Made by a program: the position numbers and the translations under genes | The notes under the pieces: generated by a model | What the model was told of the DNA's origin: nothing | The model's database searches: none | The model's input: the letters and a program-made list of their open reading frames with translations, nothing else | In this document: piece after piece, positions 869-16,904 of the stretch | Layout of the letters: the number at the start of each line of letters is the position of its first letter | Numbering within the stretch: position 1 is the first letter of the stretch | Source of the DNA: Candidatus Saccharimonadota bacterium | GTDB taxonomy: Bacteria > Patescibacteriota > Patescibacteriia > 2-12-FULL-60-25 | Assembly (NCBI GenBank): GCA_022843095.1 | Contig: JALHOH010000001.1 | Coordinates: forward strand, 1-32,000 | Length of the DNA: 32,000 nucleotides | Reading direction: 5' to 3'

Positions 869-1130
869 TGACGTTAACGTGTCGCATGACCATGCAGTCA
901 ATCGCGAACTGCTTCGAGTTACGTCACGGGTTACGTCACGGACCCAAAGGAAAGGCCCCGGAACCTTGCGATTCCGGGGCCTTATGAGTGCGAGGAGGGG
1001 GACTTGAATGCCAAGGGGGCAACACGAGCGTACACGAAGTGGCGGAAAAGATGCGGAATCGCGTCACGGGGTTACGTCACGACGTGCCACGGAGAGGCGT
1101 TTCGTCACGGGTTACGTCACGGGCGTGACG
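869..1130. repeat. Cluster of GTTACGTCACGG direct repeats arranged as three tandem pairs, plus inverted partial copies
   Basis: Perfect tandem pair at 918-929 and 930-941. A second pair (gCGTCACGG g GTTACGTCACGa) lies at about 1061-1082. A third pair (GTTtCGTCACGG GTTACGTCACGG) lies at 1099-1122 and runs into the inverted repeat CGTCACG-gg-CGTGACG (1115-1130). The 10-bp palindrome ACGTTAACGT at 871-880 contains an inverted near-copy of the repeat core. Confidence 0.85.
952..983 (-). terminator. Rho-independent terminator-like hairpin
   Basis: Perfect 12-bp stem AAGGCCCCGGAA / TTCCGGGGCCTT with an 8-nt loop. On the minus strand it is followed by TTTCCTTTGGG. It could end transcripts coming from the 1315..5090 operon. 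Confidence 0.5.
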
Positions 1131-1314
1131 GAACTGAGTGAGGCTCGGTCGACGGCGAATGACCGCGACCCGACGAAGACATGCCCTGAGAGAAGCGATC
1201 GCGGCGACCGGTTGAGTGAGGCAGTCCTGCCGCACCACTTGGGACCGCCGAACAGGTAGGCTCCGCTCGTCCGGCGGACGCCATCGAAACTGAAACCTTG
1301 TGGCCGACCCGTTG

Positions 1315-1881: not shown

Positions 1882-2955
1882 TCATGAATTCGCAACATGC
1901 TGCTGCAGAAGGCTTGTTGCAAGGTGCTCCGCGAAGTCGCACGGGAGAGCGTTGCCGATCATCGTACAAGCAAACTCCATGTAATTCGTCACGAATTGAT
2001 AGTCGACTGGAAACGTCTGAATCAACGCAGCTTCGCGAACCGAGATCGTTCGTAGCTGATCGGGATGACCGAAGCGCCCCTTGCTCGGAGTGGTGCACCC
2101 TCCAGTGATGGTCGGTGCCGGCTCATCCCATGTCATACGGCCGTACACATTCTGAAATCCAGACGACAAATCCTGATGACATTCAGGGCGGCTCCGCTTG
2201 GGGATTTTAGACCAGCGACCTCCCGGTTTCGCGTGGCGCAATCTGGTCTTGTTTGCGCTGGAGATGTCTCGAACAACGTGCCAGTCGGTATTCGATGGCC
2301 CTCCTGCTGCGAGAGCAGCTGACAGCGTGTTCGGCGTACCCAATGTCGACATTTGGCCGCTCAAATCTCGTAGACTTCTCCACTTAGGCAGCCCATTCTT
2401 GCCGCCGCGCGAATGAGTCGGGGCCGGAAGTGACGGCTGAAATTTTCGACTTGCGAACAACACGAGCCGACGCCGTCGCTGCGGCACTCCGTAGTCGGCG
2501 ACCTGAAGCACGCCCCACGCTAGGCGGTAACTCATTGCGCGAAGGCTTCGGAGAAGCTTGTTGAAATGCGCTTCGCCCTTCATGGCCAAGCCAGGCACAT
2601 TCTCCATCATGACAAGATCTGGCCGCAACTCACGCGTAAGTCGGGCAATTTCAAAGACGAGTTCGTTGCGTGGATCTGGTGCTGACGAACTGCGAGTCAG
2701 ACTTGAAAACCCCTGGCAAGGCGGGCATCCAGCAATCATATCGAGTCGATCGATTCCGATCTTTCGCAGAATGGCGTCACCGCTGAGATTTCGAATATCT
2801 TGTTCGAATACGTGAACGTCCGAATGATTAGCTCTGTACGAGGCGGCGGCGTGCTTCTCGAGCTCGATGGCTGCGCGCACCGCAATGCCAGCACGTTTGA
2901 GTCCGACTGTCAGTCCTCCGCAGCCCGCGAAAACATCGATAGCGTGAAGCTTCAT
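1882..2955 (-). CDS. DNA (cytosine-5)-methyltransferase
   Basis: All canonical C5-MTase motifs are present: DVFAGCGGL (I), GCPPCQGFS (IV), MENVPGL (VI), QRRRRL (VIII), GNALP (X). Confidence 0.95.
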   Translation of the reverse strand: MKLHAIDVFAGCGGLTVGLKRAGIAVRAAIELEKHAAASYRANHSDVHVFEQDIRNLSGDAILRKIGIDRLDMIAGCPPCQGFSSLTRSSSAPDPRNELVFEIARLTRELRPDLVMMENVPGLAMKGEAHFNKLLRSLRAMSYRLAWGVLQVADYGVPQRRRRLVLFASRKFQPSLPAPTHSRGGKNGLPKWRSLRDLSGQMSTLGTPNTLSAALAAGGPSNTDWHVVRDISSANKTRLRHAKPGGRWSKIPKRSRPECHQDLSSGFQNVYGRMTWDEPAPTITGGCTTPSKGRFGHPDQLRTISVREAALIQTFPVDYQFVTNYMEFACTMIGNALPCDFAEHLATSLLQQHVANS

Positions 2956-5090
2956 CGTTCCTTCACCGCCAATTTTCGCTGACGTTCGGCCTCCTTCAGG
3001 AACGCCTCGTGAGTCTGTCGAGTTCGACGCAAAAATGCAGTCCAGCCAATGTGCTCAAGCTCTTCATCGTTGACGAACTTATCGAACGCTTTCTTCGCAA
3101 CACTTTTCAGAGCGATGCCATCACAAACGAGAGTGATATGGAATCCCCCCTGAAACAGCCTCATGAAGTCCTCGTTCTTTCTGTCGTGCAGAAATTTTGC
3201 GAGGACATCGTAGTAGGTGTTGATTCGCTCAAACTCTTCATCGGTCAATTTGTGGTGCGGGCGCTTTATCTCGATGATCTCAATGCGACCGTCCACAGAG
3301 GTCATAACGAAGTCTGGCCGCTTCTTCGTGATTGACGGATCAAAGTCAGCCAGCTCGGTCGTTCGATCCGTTTCTGCCTTGTATAGCTTCAAGAATTCTG
3401 TGCGCAGAACATTGAACGACTCGTTCGCGGTAACAGGCGACCAGTGCGGATTGATTAGCCACGGAGCATCTTCGAGCAGCTTCTGTAGGGCATCCTCTGC
3501 GGTGTCTGCGCCGTCCTTTAGTACTTCAAGTCGCCGAATGACTTCTACCCGGTCATGTGCGATGGAACCAAAAGCCGAAAGTTCTGCAATCCGCGCGGTT
3601 CTCAACAGGCTAGACAGCATTTCAAGCGGGGAGTCGCTATCGCTGGCGGCCTCGCGCATCTTGGCGGTAAGTTCAAGATGAGGAGCGAAGTTCAGGGTCA
3701 ATTGTACCAGGGAATCTATCGTCGCTTTGTCGTCGAGTTCGTCCTCGCGCAGCGTTTTTCCGAGAAGTTGAGCTAGTTCGTCAGCGCGTTTGCGGATCGG
3801 TTCATGCGCATCACCCGGGAACATCTTGCTAATCTTGTTGTCAATGTCCGATTTTTCTCGAAACCGCTCCCAGATCTTCTTCTTCATCGGTTCCCGCGAC
3901 AAAGTTCCCACATTGACAACGAGTTCCTGCCCCCACTGTTGAAATGCCTGACATAGATCGTCCGACCAGAGGATATCTCGACGATCGGTTTGGATGAGAT
4001 CCTCTTCCTCGTCCAGCCAGTCTGCCTCTAGTTGACCAACGAGGTAGGAGCGGATGTTGAACTCGCCGGTAAATCCCGAGCGGCGATTGAAGAGCGCTGT
4101 CTGAGCGGCGATCTTACCTCGGCAGTAGATTCGGATTCCTGCCATCAGTTCGTCGCGGTAGGGTTCTTTGGAGTATGCAACCCATCCTACGACCGGATAG
4201 AATCTGCCTTCGAACTCAAAACCAGCCTGAAGCGGCTTTCCATCTGATGTACGCGTCAGCACCTTATCGTCGGGCGTGATGACCGCGTACGACGACGCTT
4301 CCGTTGGAGGAAAGTCTCTCTTCAGCTCGAGACGGATCTCTGTGCCAGGACTCTTCGGGATCTCGAACTTGCCCACAATTCGCGGTTCGGACGAACCGGA
4401 AGATGTGTCCACGATGTTGATCTGCCAGTTGGGGGTCGGAATGCCGAAGCGCTGCGCGAGCTGTCGTTCGAGCTCTTCGACCGCCGGGACCATGCGCTTC
4501 GAAAATTTTGACAGTACGAGTTTCGTGCCCGGTTTCGCATCATACTCGCCGTCGCGTGAACCAATTTCTGGATGGTAGGCCTGCTCGGAATCGGTAAGAA
4601 TCTGCGATCGATCAAGAATGAGATGAGAGACAATATATCCCAACTCCTTCCCTTCGACCGTAGTACGCAGATCTCCTCCTGCTGTCTCAAGTTCGATTCG
4701 CTCGCAGATGCCAAATGGGGCGAGTTTTCCTACCCCTTTCCGACCCATCACTTTCCGCTTAAGGGACCTCGTCCGATCGCCTCGTGCAGAATCCTTGCGT
4801 CGTTCTCCTCCTACCTTCAGGTAAAATGCGTTCACTTCTTCGGGCGTCATTCCATGACCGTTGTCGGCGACGACGATCTCCAGCCCTTTGTCTTCAAGCG
4901 CGCCGCCACGTTTGGTGGCGAGCGTTGTGCCCAATGGGGCACGAATGTTGACGCTGGTCGCATCTGCGTCGTATGCGTTGGCGATAAGCTCGGCAATCAC
5001 GGCGCTGACTTTGTCGTATAGTTTGACGCCAAGCTTGTCGACAGTGAGCCGCGAGATCGTCATCGAGTACTTGGCTGCGTCAGATTTCAT
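2952..5090 (-). CDS. GHKL (Bergerat-fold, MutL/MORC-like HATPase_c_3-type) ATPase fused to a C-terminal PD-(D/E)xK nuclease-like domain (712 aa)
   Basis: N-terminus: ELIANAYDAD (N box), VADNGHGM (G1), GRKGVGKLAPFG (G2). C-terminus: RPDFVMTSVDGRIEIIEIKRP, i.e. D593...E607-I-K609 (nt 3312-3314 and 3264-3272). GGAG lies 8-11 nt upstream of the ATG. The stop overlaps the MTase start (ATGA at 2952-2955). Confidence 0.85.
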   Translation of the reverse strand: MKSDAAKYSMTISRLTVDKLGVKLYDKVSAVIAELIANAYDADATSVNIRAPLGTTLATKRGGALEDKGLEIVVADNGHGMTPEEVNAFYLKVGGERRKDSARGDRTRSLKRKVMGRKGVGKLAPFGICERIELETAGGDLRTTVEGKELGYIVSHLILDRSQILTDSEQAYHPEIGSRDGEYDAKPGTKLVLSKFSKRMVPAVEELERQLAQRFGIPTPNWQINIVDTSSGSSEPRIVGKFEIPKSPGTEIRLELKRDFPPTEASSYAVITPDDKVLTRTSDGKPLQAGFEFEGRFYPVVGWVAYSKEPYRDELMAGIRIYCRGKIAAQTALFNRRSGFTGEFNIRSYLVGQLEADWLDEEEDLIQTDRRDILWSDDLCQAFQQWGQELVVNVGTLSREPMKKKIWERFREKSDIDNKISKMFPGDAHEPIRKRADELAQLLGKTLREDELDDKATIDSLVQLTLNFAPHLELTAKMREAASDSDSPLEMLSSLLRTARIAELSAFGSIAHDRVEVIRRLEVLKDGADTAEDALQKLLEDAPWLINPHWSPVTANESFNVLRTEFLKLYKAETDRTTELADFDPSITKKRPDFVMTSVDGRIEIIEIKRPHHKLTDEEFERINTYYDVLAKFLHDRKNEDFMRLFQGGFHITLVCDGIALKSVAKKAFDKFVNDEELEHIGWTAFLRRTRQTHEAFLKEAERQRKLAVKER

Positions 5091-5168
5091 TCGAGTTTCT
5101 CCATGCTTACTCGCGAGTTGTCGACGAAGCGGACAGATGACAGAATCGACCGTTGGTGGAAGTGTTTG

Positions 5169-5198
5169 ATTTTACACGCGCGTGTTCGCGCGAGTAAA
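5169..5198 (-). promoter_or_regulatory. Possible sigma-70-type promoter of the GHKL/MTase operon
   Basis: On the minus strand: TTTACT (5193-5198), 18-nt spacer, TAAAAT (5169-5174), about 80 nt upstream of the ATG at 5090 in an AT-richer spacer. Eye match only. Confidence 0.3.
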
Positions 5199-5315
5199 GC
5201 AAATGCAAGCAGATTGCGAGAACAATTTTGCTCTTGCTTCTCGGCATCAAGCGGGATCTCCGAGTCCAAAACACCGGCCCTCACGCGAGGACCGGCAGAG
5301 CCCAACAACACGCCG

Positions 5316-6350
5316 TCACGACACCGCCCGCACCACGATCCCGCTGCCGTCGTTCGCCGCGCTCGCGGGCTCGGTGGCCATGAGGTACTCACCCGCAGAG
5401 CGCTCCAACACGAAGCGCAGCTCGGGGTCGTCGTTCTTCGCGTGCGCGACGTACGTCACGGCCTGGACAACGCCATACCGCGAGTGATCCCCGTCCTTCA
5501 GCGCGACGGTCTGCGCCTCGCGCACGAGCTCGCGCGGGATCGCCGCGTTCTCGAGCATCGCTTCGATGGCCGCGTCGGGGTGAGGCACGAGCGTCGAGCG
5601 AGCTGCCTCCATGAGCGCGAGCGTCTGTCCCCAACGGGAGGGCAGATTCTTCATCGCGACCGCAAGCGCAGCCACGAGCTGATCGGGGTCGATCTTGCGA
5701 TGCGTGCGGTACAGCAGGCGCTTTTCGCCGACAGACACGATGAGCCCGTTCATGCACGCGAGGCGGAGCCACGCGTCGTCGATCGTGAGGGCAGCGCCCG
5801 CGACCTCGCTGTTCCTGAGCGTCCAGCCGGGGAGAAGCGCATCGTCCCCCACCTTGCGCACGTCCACGTGGACCGCGCTGTAGATGGTGGTTGCGTCCGT
5901 GCGATCGACGCGCGTGAAGCGGAACGTATCGAGCGCACGACCGAAGGTCTCAGCCATCGTGTCGAAGATCCGCACATCGTCGATCGGAGAGAAGTTGGGC
6001 CCCAGCATCGCGCGGAGCACGACGCCTGTGGGCGCGCGTTCCTCGCGGATCGTGCGGAGCTTCACTTCGCCGGGCAATCGTGTGAGGCGGCGATTGGTCT
6101 CCTCCGCGCGCTCGGTGCCCGAGACGGCGTCGGAGAACCAGCGTTCCCAGCGGACGCCGAGGAGCGCGGCGAGCTGCCGCTTGGACCACGAGTTCAACGT
6201 GAGCTCGGGCAGGTTCGGGGCGCGGAGCGATCCCTCGGGCGTGAACCGAAGATCCGCGTAGCGGACGAGGGTGTCGGGCAGCGCGCGAGCGGCGCGCTCG
6301 CGCACGGCTTCGTGGACGTCGTGAAAAGACACCGTGTCGTTCAGGTTCAT
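5316..6350 (-). CDS. DUF932-like (phage/plasmid-related, TIGR03299-type) protein (344 aa)
   Basis: Length and layout fit. The central LRLACMNGLIV...LLYRTHRK segment resembles the conserved C-x-N-G ... R-H core of DUF932 proteins common on ICEs and plasmids. AGGAGG lies about 10 nt upstream of the ATG. Confidence 0.65.
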   Translation of the reverse strand: MNLNDTVSFHDVHEAVRERAARALPDTLVRYADLRFTPEGSLRAPNLPELTLNSWSKRQLAALLGVRWERWFSDAVSGTERAEETNRRLTRLPGEVKLRTIREERAPTGVVLRAMLGPNFSPIDDVRIFDTMAETFGRALDTFRFTRVDRTDATTIYSAVHVDVRKVGDDALLPGWTLRNSEVAGAALTIDDAWLRLACMNGLIVSVGEKRLLYRTHRKIDPDQLVAALAVAMKNLPSRWGQTLALMEAARSTLVPHPDAAIEAMLENAAIPRELVREAQTVALKDGDHSRYGVVQAVTYVAHAKNDDPELRFVLERSAGEYLMATEPASAANDGSGIVVRAVS

Positions 6351-6437
6351 CGTCGATCACCTCCTGGGGCCGGGAGAAGAGCAGTCCGCGTGCGTGCGGG
6401 CTCTCGGGTGTCAGCCCCAGAAGAAATCCCCGGAACC

Positions 6438-6473
6438 TCACGAGTGATCCGTGTGGTTCCGGGAGGACGAAGG
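6438..6473 (-). terminator. Hairpin between the Cas4-like and DUF932 genes (possible attenuator or terminator)
   Basis: 9-bp arms CCCGGAACC / GGTTCCGGG with an 18-nt loop. On the minus strand it is followed by GATTTCTTCTGG. It starts 38 nt downstream of the Cas4-like stop. Confidence 0.3.
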
Positions 6474-6510
6474 TGCGCGTAGAGGAGGAGTTCGCGCGTG
6501 GCGCGTAGCA

Positions 6511-7359
6511 TCAGTCCGCGCTCGCGTTGTCGTTCGCAGCGCGACCGTCCCACTGCGCGCAGAGCGCGGCGAACGGGCAGTGCGTGCAGAGCGCGCCGGG
6601 TGTGGGCGGAAACACCTTGGCAGTGATCCCGCGCACGACCTCGTGCGCCGTCGCGACGAAGAACGCGCGGTCGTTGTCGCTCACGCGGACGTTGCGCACG
6701 ATGACCTCTGGAACGCTGGAGGCGACCATCGTGACGAGCGAGACATGCGGACGCACGCCGTGCATGCGCTCGTATGCGAACGCGTAGGCGGCGAGCTGAA
6801 GCAGGTGCTCGCGCGTTCCGAAGGGCTGTCGATGGGCTGTCTTGAACTCGACGATGCGATCGTCGGGACGAACGAGGTCCATCCGCCCTGCGAGATCGAG
6901 GGTGTCTGAGAGCGGCACGCGCACGTCGGGTTCGACGGCGAGTACCGCATCGTCCGCGCAGGCGTCGACGTAGCGGGCGATGAGCTCTGCCCCGCGCTCT
7001 TCATACACCTTGGCGGAGAAGCCCGAGAGGTACCGAAGCCCGTTCTTGGGGCGATCGAACCACTTGCTCCGAAACACATCCGCCGCCTGATCCGCACGCG
7101 GATACCCACCCACGGAACGGTAGTGGTGGACCCATTCGAGGGCCTTGTGCATGACCTGGCCGAACGCGCGTGCGGCGGGCTCGAAGGAAGGAACAATCCC
7201 CTCTTCGTGCTCGAACGCATACTGCCGCGCACACGCGAGGTACTGCTTGATCCGACTGACGGTGATCGCGGGACGCTTCGGCCCCTCGTGGTCGTCGGGA
7301 ACGACCGCGAGCGGCAGGCGCATGCGCGCGACCTCTTGATGATCCGTGCCTGTATTCAT
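6511..7359 (-). CDS. Cas4-like / RecB-family PD-(D/E)xK exonuclease with a 4-Cys (Fe-S) cluster (282 aa)
   Basis: N-terminal Cys (YLACARQY), D...E-x-K (MDLVRPDDRIVEFKT), QxxxY (LLQLAAYAFAY) and C-terminal CTHCPFAALC (C-x2-C-x5-C). I chose the ATG at 7359 because it forms an ATGA overlap with the upstream stop. The longer ORF extension (to 7545) is R-rich junk. Confidence 0.8.
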   Translation of the reverse strand: MNTGTDHQEVARMRLPLAVVPDDHEGPKRPAITVSRIKQYLACARQYAFEHEEGIVPSFEPAARAFGQVMHKALEWVHHYRSVGGYPRADQAADVFRSKWFDRPKNGLRYLSGFSAKVYEERGAELIARYVDACADDAVLAVEPDVRVPLSDTLDLAGRMDLVRPDDRIVEFKTAHRQPFGTREHLLQLAAYAFAYERMHGVRPHVSLVTMVASSVPEVIVRNVRVSDNDRAFFVATAHEVVRGITAKVFPPTPGALCTHCPFAALCAQWDGRAANDNASAD

Positions 7360-8420
7360 GAAACTCCGTCCTCCTCCGTGCACGAAGCGGATGGCGAGCC
7401 ACCGTGGCCCGTGCTTCCGCTTCGCGCGCTTGGAGAACCGAGCGATGCGTGGGCAACGACAACACCGGCTCGTTTGAGCTGTGCGCGAAGCGTGCTCCGC
7501 GCAACCCCGAGCTTCCGTGCTGCCGTCGCGATGCGTCCGCCACATGCCACGAGGACGGCGCGAAGCAATGCGGCGCTCGGCGAACCGACACGCACGCTGC
7601 CCAGGTCTTCTGCGGCGAGCACGGGCGCGATCTCCGCGGCACCGAGGAGGGCGAGGTCGCTTTGGACCGCCGCGCGACGGAGCACGTTCTGCAGCTGCCG
7701 CACGTTGCCCGGCCAGCGCGCCGCGCGAAGCAAGGCCTCTGCGTCCGCGCGGAGCGTGCGAGGCCCGAGCTCCTCATGGTGTGCGGCGAAGAACGCGTCC
7801 GCGAGCTCTGGGATGTCCTCGGGCCTCGCCCGAAGTGCGGGCGTCCGAAGGACGAGCACGCGAAGGCGATACAGCAGATCGCTGCGGAAGCGCTTCTGCG
7901 CGACGCGCTCGGACAGGTTCTCGCGCGAGGCGACGATGAGTCGCACGGACACGCGCTTCATCCCCTCTCCTCCGACGGGACGAAGCTCACCGGTCTCGAG
8001 TACGCGCAAGAGCGACGCTTGTGCAGCAGCACTCGCCTCTGCGATCTCGTCCAGAAACAGCGTGCCGCCGTCTGCTTGCTCGAAGAGCCCGCGGTGCGTG
8101 CGATGGGCGCCGGTGAAAGCGCCTTGCACATGACCGAAGAGCTCGGAGCCAAGGAGCGTGGGCTCGATCGCGGCCACGTTCGCTGCGACGAACGGACGCG
8201 CGCGGCGCAGGCTCTCGGCGTGCAGGGCGCGAGCGACGAGCTCTTTGCCCGTTCCGCTCTCGCCTTCGATCACGACGGGGGCCGTGGACGGCGCGAAGCG
8301 CTCGATGTCCGCGCGGAGCGATTGCATGAGCGCGCTCTCGCCCACCAAGGCGCGCAGGGCGCGGTTGGCAGGGCGGATGCGTTCCAGGTGAATGACGTTG
8401 GTGGGAGGGGGATCGTCCAT
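7356..8420 (-). CDS. Sigma-54-dependent transcriptional activator (bEBP), AAA+ plus Fis-type HTH, with no N-terminal sensor domain (PspF-like)
   Basis: GESGTGKE (Walker A), GAFTGA, LFLDEI (Walker B), RWPGNVRQL, and a C-terminal IATAARKLGVARSTLRAQLKRAG HTH. The ATG at 8420 is preceded by AGGAGGAG. Only about 25 residues precede the AAA+ core. Confidence 0.9.
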   Translation of the reverse strand: MDDPPPTNVIHLERIRPANRALRALVGESALMQSLRADIERFAPSTAPVVIEGESGTGKELVARALHAESLRRARPFVAANVAAIEPTLLGSELFGHVQGAFTGAHRTHRGLFEQADGGTLFLDEIAEASAAAQASLLRVLETGELRPVGGEGMKRVSVRLIVASRENLSERVAQKRFRSDLLYRLRVLVLRTPALRARPEDIPELADAFFAAHHEELGPRTLRADAEALLRAARWPGNVRQLQNVLRRAAVQSDLALLGAAEIAPVLAAEDLGSVRVGSPSAALLRAVLVACGGRIATAARKLGVARSTLRAQLKRAGVVVAHASLGSPSARSGSTGHGGSPSASCTEEDGVS

Positions 8421-8430
8421 GGGCGTCTCC

Positions 8431-8490
8431 TCCTGCACGCGACGAAAGGTGCGATGGGATCACGCATGATGCGTGTGTTCGCGTGCAGGA
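8431..8490 (-). promoter_or_regulatory. Inverted repeat in the bEBP leader, partly overlapping its Shine-Dalgarno sequence
   Basis: 12-bp arms TCCTGCACGCGA (8431-8442) and TCGCGTGCAGGA (8479-8490). They enclose a second small palindrome, ACGCAT-g-ATGCGT. Confidence 0.4.
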
Positions 8491-8680
8491 GGGACGGGAC
8501 GACCCCAGTGCGCGAGGCCGCATGGAGCTTCGCGACCGAGCGTGAGCTCGATGCAGCGTGCAGGCGGCCCGTCTCCTCCCAGGACAAGCGTGCCGGACGC
8601 GCGCGCGTCGCGTCAGGGGACGAATTTCTTGAATGCGTGTGTTGGCTGTGGACAAGCTGTGCGCAAACGGCGCGAGGGGC

Positions 8681-9244
8681 TCACGCCCCCACGACGCGCT
8701 GCCCAGCGCGCTTCATCTTTGTGTCCCGGAGGTCGAGGCAACGCCCTGGAAAGAGCGAGTAGTGCGCGCGATACCTCGACGGGCGCTCGTGTCGATACAG
8801 CGCGCCAGAGGTCGCTTCGAGCAGGAAAAACCCAAGACGATCGCCTCCCTCGACCCAGGCGTGCCCCTCACAGCGACGATCACGACAGAGGAAGCCCACG
8901 AGCATCGTGGCGGGCGTGCCCATCGCGTTCAGGACCGAGAGCGCGAACGCCGAAAGGTCGTCGCAGTCCCCTCCACCGCGCATGCGGGTCGCCGCAGGCG
9001 GGCCCCAGAGATCGCAACCAGCGGGGTCTGCGATGTATCGAAGGCGCTTCGTGGCGAGCTCGCTTCGGACGTAGTTCGCGACGACGTCTCCCGCCGCGTA
9101 TCCGGCACGCACCTGCGGCGCGAGCAGGCGCGAGATGTCTTTCACCTGCTCGGGGCGCATCACGCGATCGATCGCGTGGCACCAGTCCGCGGGGCTCGGA
9201 TACACGCACAGGCAGCCAGGACAAACAACTGGGAACGACGCCAT
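8681..9244 (-). CDS. Transglutaminase-like cysteine protease-fold protein (187 aa)
   Basis: GGGDCDDLSAFALSVLNAMGTPATMLVG...CEGHAWVE...LLEAT matches the Cys-His-Asp/Glu core spacing of the transglutaminase-like superfamily. The N-terminus has a Cys cluster, CPGCLC...C-H. Confidence 0.6.
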   Translation of the reverse strand: MASFPVVCPGCLCVYPSPADWCHAIDRVMRPEQVKDISRLLAPQVRAGYAAGDVVANYVRSELATKRLRYIADPAGCDLWGPPAATRMRGGGDCDDLSAFALSVLNAMGTPATMLVGFLCRDRRCEGHAWVEGGDRLGFFLLEATSGALYRHERPSRYRAHYSLFPGRCLDLRDTKMKRAGQRVVGA

Positions 9245-9366
9245 GTCTTTCGCGCTAGCACCGGCGTTCGAGGGAGCAACTCTCTCATTCGGGCTGCTGC
9301 GGAAGAGTGGACATACTCTGTCCGCGTCGAATTGCGGGGTGACCGCGTCCAGCTACCCTGCGTTGC

Positions 9367-9789
9367 ATGTCTCGTTCAGACGTTGCACTTGTTGTTGGAC
9401 TGCTCACCGTTGGAGTGCTCGGCGCCGGCGTGTACTTGCACCTGACCGCCGAACCCGAAGAGTCCCGCCGCATTCGACGGGAGGCTGACCAACGCCTGCG
9501 CGCTGGTGCCGTTCAGATCGCGAAGGCGCATGGGAACCCCAAGCTTCGCGAGAAGGCTCGCCTTGGCGTCGAGTTCGCGGATCGCGAGTGGTTCGGGAAG
9601 AACCGCTCCGGCGACCGCCCGCCGCACGGACTGCCTCGTAACATCCACGGCAATTGGTGCGGCTCCGGCGGCTGCGGCCCCGTGCTCGACGAGCTCGATC
9701 AGCTCTGCTTCGACCACGATCAGGCGTACCAGCGCGCGGATGAGGTCGCTCGGCTCTGGCGCGAAGGTCGACGACCGCTGCTCGCGTAG
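9367..9789 (+). CDS. Membrane-anchored phospholipase A2-like mini-protein (140 aa)
   Basis: N-terminal hydrophobic helix VALVVGLLTVGVLGAGVYLHL. HGNWCGSGGCG resembles the (Y/W)CGxGG Ca-loop, and LDQLCFDHDQAY resembles the D-x-C-C-x-x-H-D-x-x-Y catalytic motif of secreted PLA2s. Confidence 0.55.
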   Translation: MSRSDVALVVGLLTVGVLGAGVYLHLTAEPEESRRIRREADQRLRAGAVQIAKAHGNPKLREKARLGVEFADREWFGKNRSGDRPPHGLPRNIHGNWCGSGGCGPVLDELDQLCFDHDQAYQRADEVARLWREGRRPLLA

Positions 9790-9929
9790 CAGGCGTCGAC
9801 ACGCACAGCCCTCGACTCGCGCGGAACGACGACAAGCATGCGGAAGCGTGAGCGTGGGGCTCGACGAACGGAAGCGCCTCGTCCACGCCGCCCGCGACAC
9901 ACGCCACACCGCTGCGGTATCCGTGACTC

Positions 9930-10901
9930 GTGTCTCGCTCGCCACCAAGCCCAACAAACCGCCCGCTCGATGACGCCCCGCGCTCGGGCCCTGAGCCTTG
10001 GCGCAAGCACGATGGCGTGGCGTTCTGCCACTGGGATCGCTGGCTCTTGCGGCTCGCGCTCGACGAACGTGAGGGGCTTCGTGGCATGCGAGCGGACTTC
10101 CGCACCCGCATGAAGAAGTCACCGAGCGACAGCGCGTCGGAGGCGATGATTGCGCAGATCGATGACCTGGAGGCGCGCCTCTCATCGCTCGGGATGACGC
10201 CTGCGCAGCTCCTCGACGACGAGGAACGCACGAGCGACTGGCTGAAGAAGAAGGCGTTCAAGCGCGTGTGGCACGACGGTCCCCACGCAAAAACCCACGC
10301 AATGCGGCACCCACCTAGGCGCGTGCTCGAACTGCGCGCGCTGCGTGGACACTGGCCGAGGTTTCCGGTCGATCCAGGCCAGTATGAGCGTCTGTTCGAG
10401 GCGGTGATGCGCGACGCGAAGTTCAGCCGCTGGTCGGACGCGTCGTCCATCGCGATGACCTTCGAGGACACCGTCGAGCGCGAGAACGCGCGACTGTCCT
10501 GCCCGCACCGACAGCTCGCGCTGCATCGCGCGGCACTCACGGCAGTCATCGAGTGTATGGACCACGTCGACGACTCGGGCGCGGACATCGCCGAGGCATA
10601 CCGCGCGATCGAGCGCCGCTACCTCGACCTCGTTCGCGAGGCTCCGCTCGACATCCTTCTGCGTGATCTGCTCGAACTCGCGGTCTGGGAAGGATATGGG
10701 CTCACGGATGCGACGGAGCCGTTTCTCAGCACGCTCTCGGAGGATCGCGCGAACGTCGCCATGAGCGAGCTCGCCCGGATCATCGCTGAGCTGCGCACGC
10801 ACGAGCTCGAGTACGCGCTTGGTACCGCGCGGCGCCTGCGCTCGCTCGTGCTCTCGTCGCTGCGTGAGCAGAACGACGCCGAGGTTGACCAGGACGCGTA
10901 G
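9930..10901 (+). CDS. Hypothetical helical protein (start uncertain: GTG 9930 or ATG 10086)
   Basis: Long ORF with a natural D/E/L/A-rich composition. The antisense ORFs (9404..10588, 10182..11525) are R/S-rich junk. No family recognised. Confidence 0.5.
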   Translation: MSRSPPSPTNRPLDDAPRSGPEPWRKHDGVAFCHWDRWLLRLALDEREGLRGMRADFRTRMKKSPSDSASEAMIAQIDDLEARLSSLGMTPAQLLDDEERTSDWLKKKAFKRVWHDGPHAKTHAMRHPPRRVLELRALRGHWPRFPVDPGQYERLFEAVMRDAKFSRWSDASSIAMTFEDTVERENARLSCPHRQLALHRAALTAVIECMDHVDDSGADIAEAYRAIERRYLDLVREAPLDILLRDLLELAVWEGYGLTDATEPFLSTLSEDRANVAMSELARIIAELRTHELEYALGTARRLRSLVLSSLREQNDAEVDQDA

Positions 10902-10925
10902 GGCCGATACTCGGGCGGAAGAACG

Positions 10926-11943
10926 ATGACTAACCTCTCGGAGCGTCGCGTCTGGCTGCTCTGCTCGGTCGCGGCGATGTCTGCGGCCGACATCCACGAA
11001 CTCACGGGCTGGCCTCTCGCGGACATCGAACCGCTCTTCGCGCGTGCGATCGCGTCCGCCACGAGCACACGCGAAGCGCTCGAATGCGTGTTCTCGCGTG
11101 CGCGTGGAGCGACGATCGGCGCGACGACCATCAAGGGCATCGAGCGGGCGGTGGAGGCGAAGCAAGGGACGCTTCGCGCCCTGCTGAGGAAGGTTGCCGC
11201 GTTGCCATGGGACGAGCTCGAAGCGCTCCACCTCGAACAGCTTGGCCGGCTCCTTCTCCACGCGGACGGACGACGATCGCTCACGGGCCAGCTCGAAGCC
11301 CTGCGACACGAGGAGCGATGGAGCACGGACCGTCCCGCCCAGCGAAGGGAGCGAGCCGTTGCACATCGAACCGTGGTCCCAGCGTTCGCGATCGTGACCG
11401 TCACGCTCGCGGAGGTGACCCCGCCGGTCTGGCGCCGCGTCTCGGTTCCGCTGACCTACTCGCTTCGTGAGCTTCACGACGTGATCCAGCTCGCGATGGG
11501 GTGGACCCACTCGCATCTGCATCAATTCACGATCGGCGAGAAGCGCTACACACCTCCCGTACCGATCGACGACGAGGATCTGGATGCTCTCGACGACCGC
11601 TCCACCACGCTCGGCAACGTCGCGCGCAGGCTTCTCGTTCGAGTACGAGTACGACTTCGGCGACTGCTGGCGTCACGAGGTCGTGATCGACCGCGTGCTC
11701 GGCGCTGACCGCTCGCTGAAGCTTGAGTGTCTCGCAGGCGCGGGTGCGTGTCCGCCGGAGGACTGCGGGGGCTGCTCGGGCTACGCGCTCCTCGTGGACG
11801 CGCTCGCGAACCCACGACACCCCGAGCACGAGGCGCTGAGCGATTGGGCCCCGCCCGGCTTCGATGCGTCGCTCTTCGATCTCGACCGCGCGAACGAACG
11901 CCTACACGCGTACGTCGCGGGGCAGTTGTCGCGCGAGCCCTGA
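10926..11943 (+). pseudogene. HTH + PRiA4_ORF3-like (pRiA4b ORF-3 family) gene interrupted by a +1 frameshift near 11620-11630
   Basis: Frame A (10926..11708) gives ...VTLAEVTPPVWRRVSVPLTYSLRELHDVIQLAMGWTHSHLHQFTIGEKRY. Frame B (open from at least 11584 to 11943) continues with the family hallmark FSFEYEYDFGDCWRHEVV...CPPEDCGGCSGYALL. The junction falls in the GCGCGC run at 11621-11627. Confidence 0.7.
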
Positions 11944-12070
11944 CACCGCGCAGGCGCCGAGTAGCGTGCGGTCTTTCGCGGGTATCGGGCGATCTGCAGC
12001 GAGTGGAGCGCCGTTCGCTCCTTCCTGCCGAGGAGAGCCTCTCGCTCCCCGCCGCAACGTCGCGAATGAA

Positions 12071-12673
12071 CTACGCCGCGAGCGACGCAACGAACGGCTC
12101 GTACAACTCATCGACCTCGTTCGCGTCGAGGGCGAGAAGGTGCCAGCGGGTGAGCGCGCCGTAGAACCCGCCGTGCAAATGATGGAGCGGCATACACTCG
12201 GCGACGATGAACGCTCGGCTCGTGAGTGAAATCTTCCAGGTGTCCTGCGCGTTGAGCGGGAGGATCGCCGTGACCGACTCGACGCTCTTGATGCTCGGCA
12301 GCGCGAGGGTGATCTGTTGCTGCTCGCGGAGGAGTTCGTCGCGCACATCGCGCTCGGCACGATCGAGCATGGGCCCGACGAGGCTCCAGCCGGTCGAGCC
12401 CGTGTCGACATCGATGCCCAAGGTTTCGAGCCAGTCTCGGAGCGGCGTGGACAGCGCCGCGATGCAAAGCCCATCGCCCACACCCCACGCACCAAGCCGA
12501 ACTCCGCTCGTGATAGCCGCTCGGCGGATGCGAGCGCGCAGCCTTGCGATGTCCCGCTCACGCGAGGTATCGTTCCTCGCGTGATTTGCAGGGGAAAACG
12601 CAACGTCACTCCACGGCGCGTCGCAGGGAACTCTCTGCGTCATCGCCCGGCGGAACAACCGATGATCGACCAT
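12071..12673 (-). CDS. Hypothetical protein (200 aa; start at ATG 12673 or 12643)
   Basis: The C-terminal 200 aa of ORF 12071..12967 are protein-like (…WLETLGIDVDTGSTGWSLVGPMLDRAERDVRDELL…). The upstream extension is R/T/S junk. No family recognised. Confidence 0.45.
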   Translation of the reverse strand: MVDHRLFRRAMTQRVPCDAPWSDVAFSPANHARNDTSRERDIARLRARIRRAAITSGVRLGAWGVGDGLCIAALSTPLRDWLETLGIDVDTGSTGWSLVGPMLDRAERDVRDELLREQQQITLALPSIKSVESVTAILPLNAQDTWKISLTSRAFIVAECMPLHHLHGGFYGALTRWHLLALDANEVDELYEPFVASLAA

Positions 12674-13161
12674 TGTCAAGCCTCGTGTGGTTGACGTCGG
12701 TGGCGATGAGGGGGTCAAGACCTCGTCGCCCCGCCGTTTTTCATATCCAAACGCACGGCGACCGCACATTCGGCCGCTCCCTTCAGCGTTCCGAGCGAAG
12801 GCTGGAAAGTCAAGCCACGCCACGAGCCGCAGCGATCCGCCACTGCTTCTCGTCGCGCGACTCGCCCCGAGCGTGGTGCGTGGCTCCGCGATCAGTGCGC
12901 GGTGAGCGTGCGTGGAACCTGTGGCGGTCGTGCGCACCAGAGCGGCACAAGCCAAGCGCCGTGTCATCGCGCCGCAGCAGTTGACGCTCCTGCGCCCGAC
13001 GAGGGGCTCGATGAGCGTTTCTGCGACACGCTCGCAAGGAGCCCACCGCGTTCACGTCGGCACCGCGCGCAGTCGTCGCGGATCGAGTTACTGCCGCCGA
13101 GCGCAAGCGGCCACGCGCGATTCCTTCGACAACCGCAAACTCGGCCGGGCACACTCGCTGC

Positions 13162-14349
13162 GTGACGGCGCCCGAACAGCCAGCGCGATCCTGGTGGCAG
13201 TTATCACTGCTGTCGAATCAATTTCCCGCGCTCCATGGGCTGCGAGTGCTGGCCATCCTGAGCGTCGTGCAGATTCACGTGACTGTCGTGCTCGCGTGGG
13301 GACAGATGCTCGCGCCGTCGACGCTCACGCGATGGTCGTCTGCGGTGTGGTTCGGCATGGACCTGTTCTTCGTGCTCTCGGGCTTCTTGATCGGCTCGAT
13401 CCTGTTGTCCGATGCAGCCAGCAACAAGCACAGCATCGCTCGCTTCTATGCGCGTCGCGCGTTTCGGACGATCCCGCTCTACGCGTTCGTCCTGTTCGTG
13501 CTGTGGCGCACCGAGAAGCCCGCGTTGCCGCTCCGAACGATCTGGCCCGAGTTTGTCTACCTCACGCCGTACCTGCGCTCGAACACGAACTACATCGTGA
13601 TGCCCTTCGCGTGGTCGCTCTGCGTCGAGGAGCACTTCTACTTGGCCGCACCGTTGCTACTCGCGTTGCTTCGCAAACTGCAATCGCATCGCGCTCGCCT
13701 CGTCACACTCGGCGCACTGTGGGCGTCTGCGCTCGTCATTCGCCACGCGATCTTCTGGGCCGCGAGGACACCATGGAGCGATCCCGAACTGTTCCGCTGG
13801 ATGTACGTCCTCACCCATACACGCTTCGACACCCTCGTCGCGGGGGTTTTGCTCGCGTATGCGCACCACCATTTCGGCGCTTCGTTGACGAGCGCTTTTC
13901 GAGCGGGTGTCGCGCGCCTCGTGTCGTACGCGATCGCGGTTGCGGCGATCGCGTGGCTGCTTCCTCCTCACGGAGCGCTACCGCACTCGAATTGGCAACT
14001 CTTTGCCTGGGGAAGCGTCACAAGCGTCGCCTACGCCGCCATCTTGCTCCCGCTGCTACACAGCCCGCCAACAGCATGGCTCCCACGTGTCTTGGGCGCG
14101 CGGTTGTGGCTGCCGATCGCAACGCTCGGGTACGGAGTGTATCTCGTGCACATCCCGCTCATGGATCACGTCGTAAAGCTCGCATCAGTCGGCTTTTTCC
14201 TCGCAGGATGGCCCGCGCACACCCGCTGGCTTCTTGCGTTCGTGTTGCTCTGCATTCTGAGCTGGTCGCTCGCGTACGTGCTGCACGTCTGCGTCGAAAA
14301 ACCTGCGCTTCGACTGCGCGATCGAATCGCGCCGCCACTACCGCAGTGA
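13162..14349 (+). CDS. Acyltransferase family 3 (OafA/Acyl_transf_3-like) integral membrane protein
   Basis: GTG start. The N-terminal FPALHGLRVLAILSVVQIH motif is followed by about 10 hydrophobic segments, typical of PF01757-type O-acyltransferases. Confidence 0.8.
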   Translation: MTAPEQPARSWWQLSLLSNQFPALHGLRVLAILSVVQIHVTVVLAWGQMLAPSTLTRWSSAVWFGMDLFFVLSGFLIGSILLSDAASNKHSIARFYARRAFRTIPLYAFVLFVLWRTEKPALPLRTIWPEFVYLTPYLRSNTNYIVMPFAWSLCVEEHFYLAAPLLLALLRKLQSHRARLVTLGALWASALVIRHAIFWAARTPWSDPELFRWMYVLTHTRFDTLVAGVLLAYAHHHFGASLTSAFRAGVARLVSYAIAVAAIAWLLPPHGALPHSNWQLFAWGSVTSVAYAAILLPLLHSPPTAWLPRVLGARLWLPIATLGYGVYLVHIPLMDHVVKLASVGFFLAGWPAHTRWLLAFVLLCILSWSLAYVLHVCVEKPALRLRDRIAPPLPQ

Positions 14350-16413
14350 CGCTCCCGTGTAGCGTGATCGACTGGCGGTGAAACACCACGGATGGCGCAA
14401 GCGCGCTCGACGAGCGCTTGCCACAGCGACGCCGAAGAAGTCGCCGGCACTCTGCCCCTCGAACACCCGAGAAGGAATCATCGAGAACCCGCCCGCTGCG
14501 TTGAGAAAAAGGTTCGCCGTGCCGGCATCCATTCTTCCGCCCGGATTCGCGAGGCTCGCGCCAATGATGAGATCGAGACGACCATCACCATCGACGTCAC
14601 CAGCGCCGCTGAGTGCTACGCCGAAGTAGTCGCCCGCAGCAACGCCACCAAACGTGCGGAGCGCCAGCGCCTGAACGCCCGACGCACTGCCGCGAAACAG
14701 ATACGCTTGTCCCGCGTCGTTCATCATCAGCGGATCCGCGAAGTGCGCACCGACAAGGATGTCGTCGAACCCGTCCTGATCGACGTCACCAACCGCTGCT
14801 GAAGACCAGCCGAACAAGTCGCCGGCGGCCACGCCATCGAGCACGCGCGCAGCAGTCGAACCCACGCCGCTCGCACTGCCATGGAATACACTGAGCGTTC
14901 CAGCGTCCATCCGTCCACCAGGATCGGCGAGGTTCGCGCCGATGAGCAGGTCTGCGAAGCCGTCGCCGTTCACATCGCCCGCAGCAGATACCGACACACC
15001 CAGCGAGTCGGAAGTCGCCGCTCCATTCAGCGTCCGCTCTGGCGTCATGGAGATTCCCGATGGTGATCCATGAAACACGCTGGCAGAACCCGCACTCATG
15101 CGACCCGCCGGATCTGCTGCAGGCGCTCCAACGATGATGTCACCGAAGCCGTCGCCATTGAGATCGCCCGCACCCGCAGAGTCCCAACCGAAGCCATCAC
15201 CAGCAGCGGCGCCCTCGAGCACTCGCGCAGCAGTGGCGTTCAGTCCGGCGCCCGATCCATGAAAGACGCTCGCAGTTCCAGCTTCCATTCGCCCGCCCGG
15301 GTCCGCCCAGTACGCACCAACGACAATGTCTGCGTACCCATCGCCGTTCACGTCACCAGCTCCAGCGATGGACCAAGAGAAAAAGTCGTTCGCGTTGCGT
15401 CCTTCGAGCACCAAGCTCGGCGTTGAGCCGATGCCTGTCGCACTCCCGTAGAAAATGTTGGCGGTGCCTGCGTTCATCCTCCCTCCGGGATCTGCCCACG
15501 ACGAACCAACCAACAGGTCCGCAAACCCGTCGCCGTTGATGTCTCCCCCGGAACTTACGACTACGCCGAAGTCATCGCCATTCGCGACGCCACGCAGCGT
15601 CACCGCCGGAGCTGCGGGCAGTCCTGTCGCACTTCCGTAGTACACATCGACCTTGCCGCGCCCTCCCTCCGCCTTCGGAGCACCAATCGCAACGTCCGCA
15701 AACCCATCACCGTTCACGTCCAGCTCGGTGCCGAAGCTCGTGTCGACGGGCGCGCTCGCCGCACCAACGCGGAACCACCACGGACTCGTCGACATCGTTC
15801 CTTCGTTCGATCCGTCTCGGCCACGCAGGCGCCAGAACCACACGCCAGGAGCAAGGCTCGCAGACGGACGAAAGCGGTCACCCGTGACGCGCGGTGATTG
15901 CTCGATGCGCGCGAAATCACGAGAACGACTCAGCTCGACCACCGCCCCATCTGTTCGAGCGCTGTTTTGCCAACGCAACGTCGGACGCTGCGAGGTAACG
16001 GTGCTGGTGCTGAGCGGCGCAATCGCGCGCGGCGCAGGCAGCATGGGATCGACGACGATGGACGCGTCGTTCGCGTCTGGAACGTCTGCTGCGACGCTTC
16101 CATCCCCTTCATCCACCACATCAACGCGCGGGACGTCTGCGACATCTGCATCGTCCATCGAACCGTCGCGTACTCCAGTGTCGACGCCCGTGTCGCTCGC
16201 GTCCGCGACGGCATCGACGCGGGCGTCTCGTGCGGCATCTGCGGCGATCACGGTGCAGCGGCTCCGTGCGAGCGAGGGAAGATCCTCGCACGGGACGTGA
16301 CAGCCGAATCGACCCAACGGATTGCCGGGCGGGCACGTGTACCCGCAGGCACCAAGCCCCGCGAACACCAGCACGCCAAGCGTGCGCGTGAAGAACGATC
16401 GAAGCGCGCTCAT
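14338..16413 (-). CDS. FG-GAP repeat (7-blade beta-propeller) lipoprotein (691 aa)
   Basis: Signal peptide plus lipobox MSALRSFFTRTLGVLVFAGLGAC. Seven copies of GD(V/I/L)(N/D)(G/Q)DG(F/Y/R)xD(I/V/L)xxG(A/S). The start forms an ATGA overlap with the upstream gene. The 3' end overlaps the acyltransferase gene by 12 nt. Confidence 0.85.
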   Translation of the reverse strand: MSALRSFFTRTLGVLVFAGLGACGYTCPPGNPLGRFGCHVPCEDLPSLARSRCTVIAADAARDARVDAVADASDTGVDTGVRDGSMDDADVADVPRVDVVDEGDGSVAADVPDANDASIVVDPMLPAPRAIAPLSTSTVTSQRPTLRWQNSARTDGAVVELSRSRDFARIEQSPRVTGDRFRPSASLAPGVWFWRLRGRDGSNEGTMSTSPWWFRVGAASAPVDTSFGTELDVNGDGFADVAIGAPKAEGGRGKVDVYYGSATGLPAAPAVTLRGVANGDDFGVVVSSGGDINGDGFADLLVGSSWADPGGRMNAGTANIFYGSATGIGSTPSLVLEGRNANDFFSWSIAGAGDVNGDGYADIVVGAYWADPGGRMEAGTASVFHGSGAGLNATAARVLEGAAAGDGFGWDSAGAGDLNGDGFGDIIVGAPAADPAGRMSAGSASVFHGSPSGISMTPERTLNGAATSDSLGVSVSAAGDVNGDGFADLLIGANLADPGGRMDAGTLSVFHGSASGVGSTAARVLDGVAAGDLFGWSSAAVGDVDQDGFDDILVGAHFADPLMMNDAGQAYLFRGSASGVQALALRTFGGVAAGDYFGVALSGAGDVDGDGRLDLIIGASLANPGGRMDAGTANLFLNAAGGFSMIPSRVFEGQSAGDFFGVAVASARRARLRHPWCFTASRSRYTGASLR

Positions 16414-16904
16414 GGGCACCCCGCGCTGGACTCGATGGGGGCGGTCACCGGCCGAAGCGTGACCGCAATCGCGCGGTGATCTCCCGCCATCCAGTTCACG
16501 CCACGCGCATCCCCTTCGGCGAGCACCGTGCGATCGCTCCCGCATACGCCGGTCGCCACGACCGCCTGCACGCGGAGCGCATCCACTGCCCCTCCTGCCC
16601 ACCACGAGACGGGCATGGGCATGCGGTCCTCGCCGTTCCAGCTTGCGATGCGCCGGGCCTCGCGGCTCGGGTCCCACCCAGGCTCGGGGACGAGCGGCAC
16701 GGGCACAGGCGCGCCCGGGGCGCGCGGCGCATACACGATGAGGCTCACGAGCTCGGGGCGACTCGATGTGCCGAGCGCGGTACGCAGGTCGGTCAGCACG
16801 AGGTTCATCTCGGCGTTGCCATCGGAGGCACAGGCGCTGGTGCCCACCGCCCCCATGAGCACGCCTGCGAAATACACGCGAAGAACGCGACGTTCAGAGT
16901 GCAT
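16410..16904 (-). CDS. Small putative lipoprotein (164 aa)
   Basis: MHSERRVLRVYFAGVLMGAVGTSAC looks like a signal peptide with lipobox. The start overlaps the upstream stop (TGATG at 16902-16906) and the stop overlaps the downstream start (ATGA at 16410-16413). Confidence 0.5.
   Translation of the reverse strand: MHSERRVLRVYFAGVLMGAVGTSACASDGNAEMNLVLTDLRTALGTSSRPELVSLIVYAPRAPGAPVPVPLVPEPGWDPSREARRIASWNGEDRMPMPVSWWAGGAVDALRVQAVVATGVCGSDRTVLAEGDARGVNWMAGDHRAIAVTLRPVTAPIESSAGCP

Follow-up and report, generated by a model that had tools for sequence, protein, structure and literature searches.

Transcription by sigma-54 RNA polymerase is usually treated as a host affair, and sigma-54 promoters are silent without an activator, or bacterial enhancer-binding protein (bEBP). 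Some sigma-54 activators have no sensor domain and are controlled in trans by a partner protein, as PspF is by PspA and HrpR/HrpS are by HrpV; others, such as FlgR of Helicobacter and CtcC of Chlamydia, have no DNA-binding domain and activate from solution. Cas4-like phage exonucleases partner single-strand annealing proteins. We know of no function for DUF932 (PF06067), the 'phage/plasmid-like protein' of TIGR03299, a large family present on plasmids, integrative and conjugative elements and phages, which to our knowledge is among the commonest uncharacterised gene families on mobile DNA. ACE1 is an Argonaute-associated enzyme of the Cas4 family (PMC12094033), and integrative mobilizable elements (IMEs) of streptococci encode a relaxase and a coupling protein and no mating pore (PMC5357655). 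Here we analyse a stretch of 32,000 nucleotides (nt) of contig JALHOH010000001.1 (positions 1 to 32,000, assembly GCA_022843095.1; hereafter the window), in which genes for a sensor-less sigma-54 activator, a Cas4-like nuclease and a DUF932 protein lie side by side within an integrative, probably mobilizable element. We find that the recurring conserved unit is the activator together with DUF932.

The conserved unit is an activator and a DUF932 protein

The three genes and the features that lie between and just beyond them are as follows (aa, amino acids; MFE, minimum free energy).

7356..8420, minus strand: sensor-less sigma-54 activator (bEBP), 354 aa, with an AAA+ domain carrying GAFTGA, a lid and a Fis-type helix-turn-helix (HTH)
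7356..7359, minus strand: ATGA, overlap of the activator stop codon and the nuclease start codon
6511..7359, minus strand: Cas4-like PD-(D/E)XK nuclease, 282 aa, with four cluster cysteines; an accessory gene of the element family
6351..6510, minus strand: spacer between the nuclease gene and DUF932, exactly 160 nt (MFE -76.1 kcal/mol, z = -4.66)
6431..6463, minus strand: predicted hairpin just 3' of the nuclease gene
6355..6428, minus strand: predicted DUF932 mRNA leader in which a CU-rich box pairs with the ribosome-binding site (MFE -42.6 kcal/mol, z = -3.0)
5316..6350, minus strand: divergent DUF932-family protein by profile and fold matches (phrog_1362), 344 aa; the conserved partner gene of the activator
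5268..5296, minus strand: terminator-like hairpin directly 3' of DUF932, with a 10-bp stem that the MFE and centroid structures share and GUUUU after it

Related elements in Myxococcota (individual loci carry handles of the form L001) share a backbone that consists, in order, of integrase and excisionase genes, small genes, a Replic_Relax relaxase, a TrwB-like coupling protein, a short activator, a variable slot and DUF932, and at least 12 related loci share the order of integrase by a tRNA gene, relaxase and coupling protein. When loci were anchored on the activator, all five clade members whose context was read adjoined a DUF932 homologue, the usual order being relaxase, coupling protein, activator, DUF932. 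A genome scan with a DUF932 profile returned 22 Myxococcota loci, with an activator directly upstream in 12 and directly downstream in three. Across all DUF932-anchored loci with full flanks, the activator lies beside DUF932 in 17 of 21, the four without it being L001, L017, L029 and L046. The contents of the slot between activator and DUF932 vary:

Empty: most loci
ParB-like gene: L013
Degenerate DUF932 paralogue: L021 (in L038 such a paralogue lies upstream of the activator)
Nuclease gene: the window, L007 and L042

The pair is also found in other arrangements. In L040 the rest of the backbone is inverted and the activator and DUF932 are kept together; in L020 and L035 the activator lies directly downstream of DUF932; and in L002 and L026, which are islands of a different type, DUF932 is followed by a 93-aa gene and then by the activator. 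A functional link between activator and DUF932 is strongly backed by this conserved adjacency in several unrelated mobile-element contexts. A preliminary description, made from the letters of the window, had suggested that either the nuclease or DUF932 may modulate the activator; conserved adjacency favours the DUF932 half of that proposal, and the optional occurrence of the nuclease disfavours the other.

A phage family carries the same three Pfam families beside a sigma-54 promoter

Scanning viral contigs with the activator profile yielded 80 loci. Within these, a family of phages (L098-L138, from IMG/VR viral contigs, for example L111 at 5020..9609; GC content 39-47%) has the gene order DUF932, AAA+-only activator, sigma-54 promoter, two small genes, PDDEXK_1 exonuclease and the Sak4-like annealing protein (Sak4). 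The AAA+ proteins are ~230 aa long, carry GAFTGA or GSFTGA, and have neither an HTH nor a sensor; Pfam scores are 7e-25 for DUF932 (PF06067) and 9e-55 for the AAA+ protein (Sigma54_activat, PF00158). DUF932 stands directly upstream of the AAA+ gene in all 24 loci with at least 900 nt of upstream sequence. Every one of the 31 phage loci has the canonical promoter, TGGCA(C/T)-N6-(T/C)TGCT, at 19-23 nt beyond the stop codon of the AAA+ gene; it occurs in seven sequence variants and scores 15-19 bits with an approximate matrix (the L111 example is TGGCACGGTTACTGCT). The exonuclease downstream matches the same PHROG families as the window nuclease.

The phage AAA+ proteins score 117 bits against the Myxococcota activator clade and 131 bits against ordinary bEBPs, which is a crude measure; because they are no closer to the Myxococcota clade, the pairing of DUF932 with an activator may have arisen more than once, perhaps twice. 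Other sensor-less activators in viral contigs are without DUF932. A search of isolated phages for close relatives of this AAA+ protein found none; what matched were host-type regulators in mislabelled records.

In some members of the phage family another strong sigma-54 promoter lies ~6 kb upstream on the opposite strand (for example at position 465 in L128 and position 1691 in L109).

The activator is placed in a distinct short clade

The activator open reading frame (ORF) spans 7356..8438 from a GTG. Since AGGAGG lies 8 nt upstream of an ATG at 8420, that ATG is the likely start, and the coordinate of 8490 at which the preliminary description ended its region lies ~70 nt beyond it. Pfam recognises Sigma54_activat (PF00158, 1.7e-61), AAA_lid_14 (1.1e-16) and HTH_8 (1.2e-05) in the protein. 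The AAA+ domain starts at about residue 25, with ~24 aa before it, and the activator therefore has no N-terminal regulatory domain; Pfam and the alignments here agree with the bEBP hallmarks (AAA+, GAFTGA, HTH without a regulatory domain) that had been read from the translation. The Walker A and B motifs and GAFTGA are present and, in the clade alignment, invariant in 30 of 30 members; the GAFTGA loop, through which the clade would contact sigma-54, is under selection. These features support an activator of the sensor-less type, which needs control in trans or through its own expression. No PspA-like gene was found among the scanned neighbours.

The central and C-terminal domains of ZraR align to the activator with 219 bits, and the protein falls below every equivalog cut-off among the NCBIfam regulator models, PspF included (TIGR02974, 236 bits where 443.55 are required). 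For the AAA-HTH part, the PADLOC model RtcR_PspF2 (CARF-AAA-HTH; 6.9e-94) scores best, with a match at positions 160-481 only. After a near-identical copy, the best ~45 matches to the activator are likewise sensor-less, 296-379 aa long and 49-56% identical, and they score above ordinary bEBPs. By these sequence comparisons the window activator is assigned to a distinct short clade.

A divergent DUF932 protein behind a predicted translational leader

Taken singly, the window DUF932 protein falls short of the Pfam threshold for PF06067 (11.8 bits where 23 are required, E = 0.2). We keep the label because 13 of 14 family members in its branch match PF06067 at E <= 1 (best 3.5e-07), and because its AlphaFold model (predicted local distance difference test score, 75) resembles phage DUF932 proteins: in a Foldseek search of BFVD the top match is a DUF932 protein (E 1.1e-24, template modelling (TM) score 0.81), with many more DUF932/TIGR03299 matches. 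The label thus appears to hold for the window protein as a member of a divergent branch. This Myxococcota branch has invariant motifs of its own (RNSEVG, CxNG and LYRxHR) in proteins of 250-410 aa. A search of PDB folds with the same model gave nothing meaningful (E > 0.1, TM ~0.12), and PADLOC had no match for the protein.

Degenerate DUF932 paralogues adjoin the activator in addition to the conserved DUF932 in L021 (8840..9742) and L038 (4953..5969); the L038 paralogue has lost RNSEVG, CxNG and LYRxHR and is possibly a regulatory subunit. On a Bacillota megaplasmid of Pontibacillus (L150, NZ_CP062975.1, 197005..202273), DUF932 lies near a replication-relaxation family gene and dnaN, so that DUF932 and Replic_Relax co-occur outside Myxococcota without an activator. 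A plasmid collection yielded one distant DUF932, with no activator adjoining.

The preliminary description had DUF932 following a hairpin-containing spacer, and this was accurate: the hairpin runs from 6463 to 6431, and L001 has an analogous one at the equivalent place, judged by eye in the alignment. The spacer is also predicted to contain a long helix that buries the DUF932 ribosome-binding site (AGGAGG, 6366..6361) and encloses a small inner hairpin. We scored the equivalent leader in 15 related loci (L011, L019, L021, L022, L024, L025, L027, L028, L030, L031, L033, L034, L036, L038 and L040), where 91.8% of cells are paired, against 37-54% when the partner columns are slid, and where compensatory changes occur in eight of 13 pairs, with a score reached by none of 500 shuffles; the structure was predicted from the same 15 sequences that were used to score it. 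The pairs include G-U pairs on the sense strand. The inner hairpin carries no column-by-column score, its loop length varying among lineages and shifting the alignment register. Rfam has no match for the leader, its only matches being the two tRNAs. The DUF932 leader is thus predicted to sequester the ribosome-binding site in a conserved and hitherto unannotated structure. Matches to GG-N10-GC within the leader were considered as a promoter and rejected, as they belong to the hairpin. The terminator-like hairpin at 5268..5296 has an unexceptional energy (z = -0.68).

The nuclease is an optional insert

Pfam assigns the nuclease to PDDEXK_1 (9.3e-29) and Cas_Cas4 (1.5e-06), and it matches the PHROG exonuclease families 69, 1218, 1706, 1870 and 298. 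The D-ExK, QxxxY and C...CxxCx5C motifs that had been picked out by eye are corroborated by the invariance of D161, E171, K173, Q188, Y192, C43, C258, C261 and C267 in four nuclease homologues. The closest solved structure is ACE1 (9iab), at E = 0.006 only, and the score against the Cas4 equivalog TIGR00372 is 54.4, below the cut-off of 65. No cas genes were found among the window neighbours and no array-like repeats in the window; no Argonaute is present, and no annealing protein adjoins the nuclease in the window. Judging from its motifs, the enzyme is Cas4-like in its predicted chemistry; it is not a CRISPR Cas4.

A word-index search for homologues of the nuclease returned one near-identical protein only, and a metagenome scan added three distant homologues. 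In related elements the nuclease is an optional insert, found in three lineages and at differing positions. It occupies the slot between activator and DUF932 only in the window and in L007 and L042, both near-identical to it; a homologue lies upstream of the activator in L036, another occurs without an activator in L001 (43% identity), and a third lies near the coupling protein alone, again without an activator, in L044. The synteny of the whole trio therefore extends to the near-identical copies, to L036 in rearranged form and, at the level of Pfam families, to the phage family, and is otherwise not conserved.

That the activator TGA overlaps the nuclease ATG (ATGA, 7359..7356) is plain from the sequence, and the same overlap occurs in L007 and L042. 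The sequence GGAGGAGGA is located just upstream of it, and the nuclease gene begins exactly at the C-terminal tail of the activator. At ~30 aa this tail exceeds that of the other 29 aligned clade members, two of which have ~20 aa. Because the overlap coincides with the longest C-terminal tail of 30 clade members, it looks like a junction left by recent insertion and not like an evolved coupling.

A proposed switch and its alternatives

The account towards which we lean, with slightly more confidence than doubt, is that the activator and DUF932 form a sigma-54 transcription switch owned by the element, with the nuclease as output or cargo. Because the activator combines an intact GAFTGA loop with the lack of a sensor domain, it would be able to remodel the host sigma-54 RNA polymerase at any time when it is present and nothing restrains it. 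The partner that it requires would be DUF932, acting as a sensor, a restraint or a targeting factor, and translation of DUF932 would be independently held down by the pairing of the leader with the ribosome-binding site. The switch would turn on the DNA-processing genes of the element, and the nuclease would be an end-processing or recombination enzyme expressed by the switch, or mere operon cargo. We place the nuclease on the output side because the phage exonuclease lies downstream of a sigma-54 promoter; by this analogy it is more likely to be output or cargo than a modulator of the activator. A broader proposal, which we put forward tentatively and with rather more doubt than confidence, is that a class of mobile-element activators that hijack the host sigma-54 polymerase has the DUF932 family as its partner in trans, be it as sensor, restraint or DNA-targeting subunit. 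The two would form a previously undescribed two-gene switch with which integrative elements and phages time their recombination and replication genes, Cas4-like exonucleases included.

Several results weigh against a switch of this kind. Adjacency of activator and DUF932 is no proof of a physical or regulatory interaction, and the 24 phage loci, all of one related family, do not count as so many independent cases. DUF932 also occurs without an activator, in 24 other viral contigs, in L001, L017 and L029, and on the Pontibacillus plasmid, and because it is so common without one, its basic function needs no sigma-54. Moreover, the search for a promoter of the window activator was negative. Within the window, TGGCAC-N5-TTGC has 33 matches with up to two mismatches, against 32.1 expected, and none with one mismatch or fewer, in agreement with the absence of such a promoter reported earlier by eye. 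Pattern and matrix scans, the latter with an approximate matrix modelled on the published consensus, found no conserved sigma-54 site in 17 related loci. No sigma-54 promoter was found within 1.5 kb on either side of the pair (19 loci), in the 900 nt downstream of DUF932 (21 loci), after the activator in the reversed arrangement, in the spacers, or in the integrase-relaxase control region, and sigma-54-like sites in related loci are rarer than in shuffles (12 against 35.5). The window has a weak candidate:

7386..7401, minus strand: sigma-54-like site TGGCTCGCCATCCGCT, 7.9 bits, with GG and GC correctly spaced

This site lies 42 nt upstream of the nuclease ATG, within the C-terminal tail of the activator, and is the only one in the window at the place equivalent to that of the phage promoter. 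Counting both strands, the window contains 21 sites that reach 8 bits or more, which puts the chance of one in a given 100-nt stretch at ~0.03, judged post hoc. The site is weak and lineage-specific; neither L001 nor L036 has it upstream of the nuclease. The best site in the window, 12.9 bits at 21418..21403, was dismissed, as it lies inside the gene for a Cys-rich secreted protein.

The lack of a sigma-54 promoter in cis in every Myxococcota locus scanned is what one would expect if the three were functionally independent backbone genes, neighbours through operon packing, with the activator reprogramming host sigma-54 genes to the advantage of the element, DUF932 acting on element DNA in establishment, replication or transfer, and the nuclease as cargo. 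DUF932 is also widespread without the activator and elsewhere adjoins replication or relaxase genes, and the slot between the pair accepts various DNA-handling genes. Packing alone, however, would not lead one to expect that the pair persists through three differing contexts and with either gene first, or that both activator clades, which do not look like sister groups, always come with DUF932 when enough flank is available (5/5 and 24/24), while other sensor-less activators in viral contigs do without it. We therefore regard independence of the genes as unlikely, if well worth keeping in view. Far less probable, in our estimation, is the circuit suggested in the preliminary description, in which the translationally coupled nuclease would modulate the activator on sensing foreign DNA or DNA ends, so that the trio would respond to damage or invaders. 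Most activator-DUF932 pairs have no nuclease, which tells against a modulating role, and the nuclease is found without the activator (L001, L044). The ATGA overlap on which the idea drew is real, but its position at the longest tail of 30 clade members suggests recent insertion. The activator does lack a sensor and need control in trans. The phage exonuclease of the same family sits downstream of a sigma-54 promoter. Three arrangements within the element family include the nuclease (those of the window, L001 and L036) and defence genes are nearby (a restriction-modification system in the window and a Gabija-like pair in L002), both of which would suit such a circuit, and nothing points to DNA-damage sensing.

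Those same neighbours could be taken to mean that the trio is itself anti-phage defence cargo, in which an AAA+ ATPase is joined by a nuclease effector and an accessory protein. The trio is flanked by a type II restriction-modification cassette and an AAA_21 ATPase cassette is near, the L002 pair stands beside Gabija-like genes and a type I restriction subunit, and Cas4-family nucleases can be defence accessories, ACE1 being an example (PMC12094033). Yet DUF932 has no PADLOC match and the activator matches only the AAA-HTH part of CARF-regulator models, the pair belongs to the backbone of the element family and not to its variable cargo, phages carry the same module before their own recombination genes, and the conservation of GAFTGA points to contact with sigma-54 and not to a defence ATPase. 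We consider a defence role the most improbable of the explanations weighed here.

The element and its other genes

The further features of the element that bear on its mobility are these.

30338..30574, plus strand: excisionase-like HTH_17 gene (profile match)
30477..31697, plus strand: tyrosine integrase (profile match)
31732..31818, minus strand: tRNA-Tyr gene, its 3' end abutting the integrase
26892..27740, minus strand: Replic_Relax (MOBC-type) putative relaxase, backbone (Pfam 1.8e-15)
23355..~24650, minus strand: TrwB/TraG-like coupling protein, backbone (Pfam; 52-56% identity to relatives)
8646..8654, plus strand: CTGTGGACA motif upstream of the activator gene, with related copies at 30112..30120 and 30152..30160 in the excisionase (Xis)/integrase control region

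The trio is part of the conserved core of an element that is integrative and probably mobilizable and lies next to tRNA-Tyr in a genome of Myxococcota type, and its assignment to a mobile island in the preliminary description is borne out by the integrase, excisionase, relaxase and coupling-protein genes found there. The tRNA-Tyr gene is the likely integration site because its 3' end abuts the integrase; no second attachment (att) repeat or copy of the tRNA 3' end was found elsewhere in the window, and the far end of the element may lie outside it. As no VirB4-type gene was found among the ORFs scanned, the element is better called mobilizable. A Replic_Relax protein has been classed as a MOBC relaxase (PMC5357655). 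We place the start of the coupling protein near 24650 because a plus-strand gene with a high GC content at third codon positions occupies 24660..25142.

Each element has CTGTGGAYA at two fixed positions, one just behind the coupling-protein gene and hence upstream of the activator, the other in the control region of excisionase and integrase; beyond the window the motif is found in L008, L011, L016, L021, L022, L024, L031 and L033; the control region also holds several further CTGTGG/CCACAG cores. The motif is probably an operator for an element regulator. It was weighed as a candidate binding site of the activator; it is present in L008 (a short contig on which no activator was seen) and absent from L002-type islands.

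In relatives the coupling protein lies directly upstream of the activator, whereas in the window ~15 kb of cargo stands between them. This cargo (8681..23174) encodes transglutaminase-like, small phospholipase-A2-like, PRiA4_ORF3, acyltransferase, FG-GAP repeat and PEGA proteins, together with a LuxR-type HTH protein (recognised by eye) and an 818-aa Cys-rich secreted protein with weak codon periodicity. Right after the DUF932 terminator comes the type II restriction-modification cassette (1882..5090, minus strand), which consists of a Dcm-type methyltransferase and a restriction enzyme of the BbrUII/HgiDII family with an HSP90-like ATPase; with a GC content of 51-57%, clearly below that of the rest of the window, it is taken to be a separate acquisition. 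Between relaxase and coupling protein lies a three-gene cassette (24660..26507, plus strand), the last gene of which encodes an AAA_21/AAA_15 ATPase. At the equivalent position L001 carries an inserted Schlafen/AlbA_2 gene, which suggests a hotspot there for cargo, possibly defence cargo. Iteron-like copies of GTTACGTCACGG / CGTCACGG form two clusters ~180 nt apart at 918..1133, adjoining a terminator-like hairpin at 955..985, and may mark an origin or the far end of the element.

L042 (LNFM01013662.1) shows 96-100% protein identity to the window from the ORF at 12071 through the DUF932 gene, so that the same element, cargo included, has been sampled independently. The islands of L002 and L003 (8839..21236) begin their gene row with a 324-aa gene of no known kind, DUF932, the 93-aa gene, the short activator and a metallophosphatase. 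Behind these come a Gabija-like OLD-TOPRIM ATPase and UvrD helicase, then a second sigma-54 activator, longer than the first, and a type I restriction subunit. That the 324-aa protein, which in L002 is encoded upstream of DUF932, might be a hidden nuclease was considered and rejected, since no similarity was found.

Comparison with known systems

The repeated pairing of DUF932 with a sigma-54 activator is the first concrete, testable functional link for this family. An integrative-element family and a phage family each carry a stripped-down sigma-54 activator of their own; because sigma-54 promoters are silent without an activator, such a protein could gate a developmental step, and if the proposed switch is real it would be a new way for mobile elements to do so. 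The phage module is small: besides DUF932 it comprises an AAA+ protein of 230 aa and a promoter of 16 nt. Two things of use for annotation also come out of the window, the definition of a Myxococcota integrative-element family and a predicted leader that had gone unannotated. In the one literature collection consulted, we found no description of the DUF932-activator pairing or of a phage family with its own sigma-54 activator.

The element as a whole resembles streptococcal IMEs in its tyrosine integrase by a tRNA gene, its excisionase, its Replic_Relax/MOBC-type protein and its TrwB-like coupling protein. It differs from them in belonging to another host phylum and in having an activator and DUF932 as core genes; no second att site was found in the window. 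Like Cas4, Cas4-like phage exonucleases and ACE1, the window nuclease has a PD-(D/E)XK core, QxxxY and a four-cysteine cluster; unlike the Cas4 and ACE1 systems, it scores below the Cas4 cut-off and stands without cas genes, an array, an Argonaute or an adjoining annealing protein. The DUF932 protein shares the predicted fold of recognised members of its family (TM 0.81), but belongs to a divergent branch and as a single protein falls below the Pfam threshold.

The activator is closest in design to PspF and HrpS, with which it shares an AAA+ domain and an HTH, only ~24 residues before the AAA+ domain, an intact GAFTGA loop and a neighbouring gene that could control it in trans. It is an orthologue of neither, has no PspA- or HrpV-like gene beside it, and has DUF932 as its conserved neighbour; its module is borne by a mobile element, and no cognate sigma-54 promoter was found beside it. 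Its AAA-HTH part also matches RtcR-type CARF-AAA-HTH regulators, but the CARF sensor is absent, and there is no room for one upstream, where 260 nt precede another gene. The phage AAA+-only proteins, with GAFTGA or GSFTGA and a canonical sigma-54 promoter beside them, recall instead FlgR and CtcC. The window protein differs from those regulators in keeping its HTH, and the phage proteins differ in also having no receiver domain and in being always preceded by DUF932.

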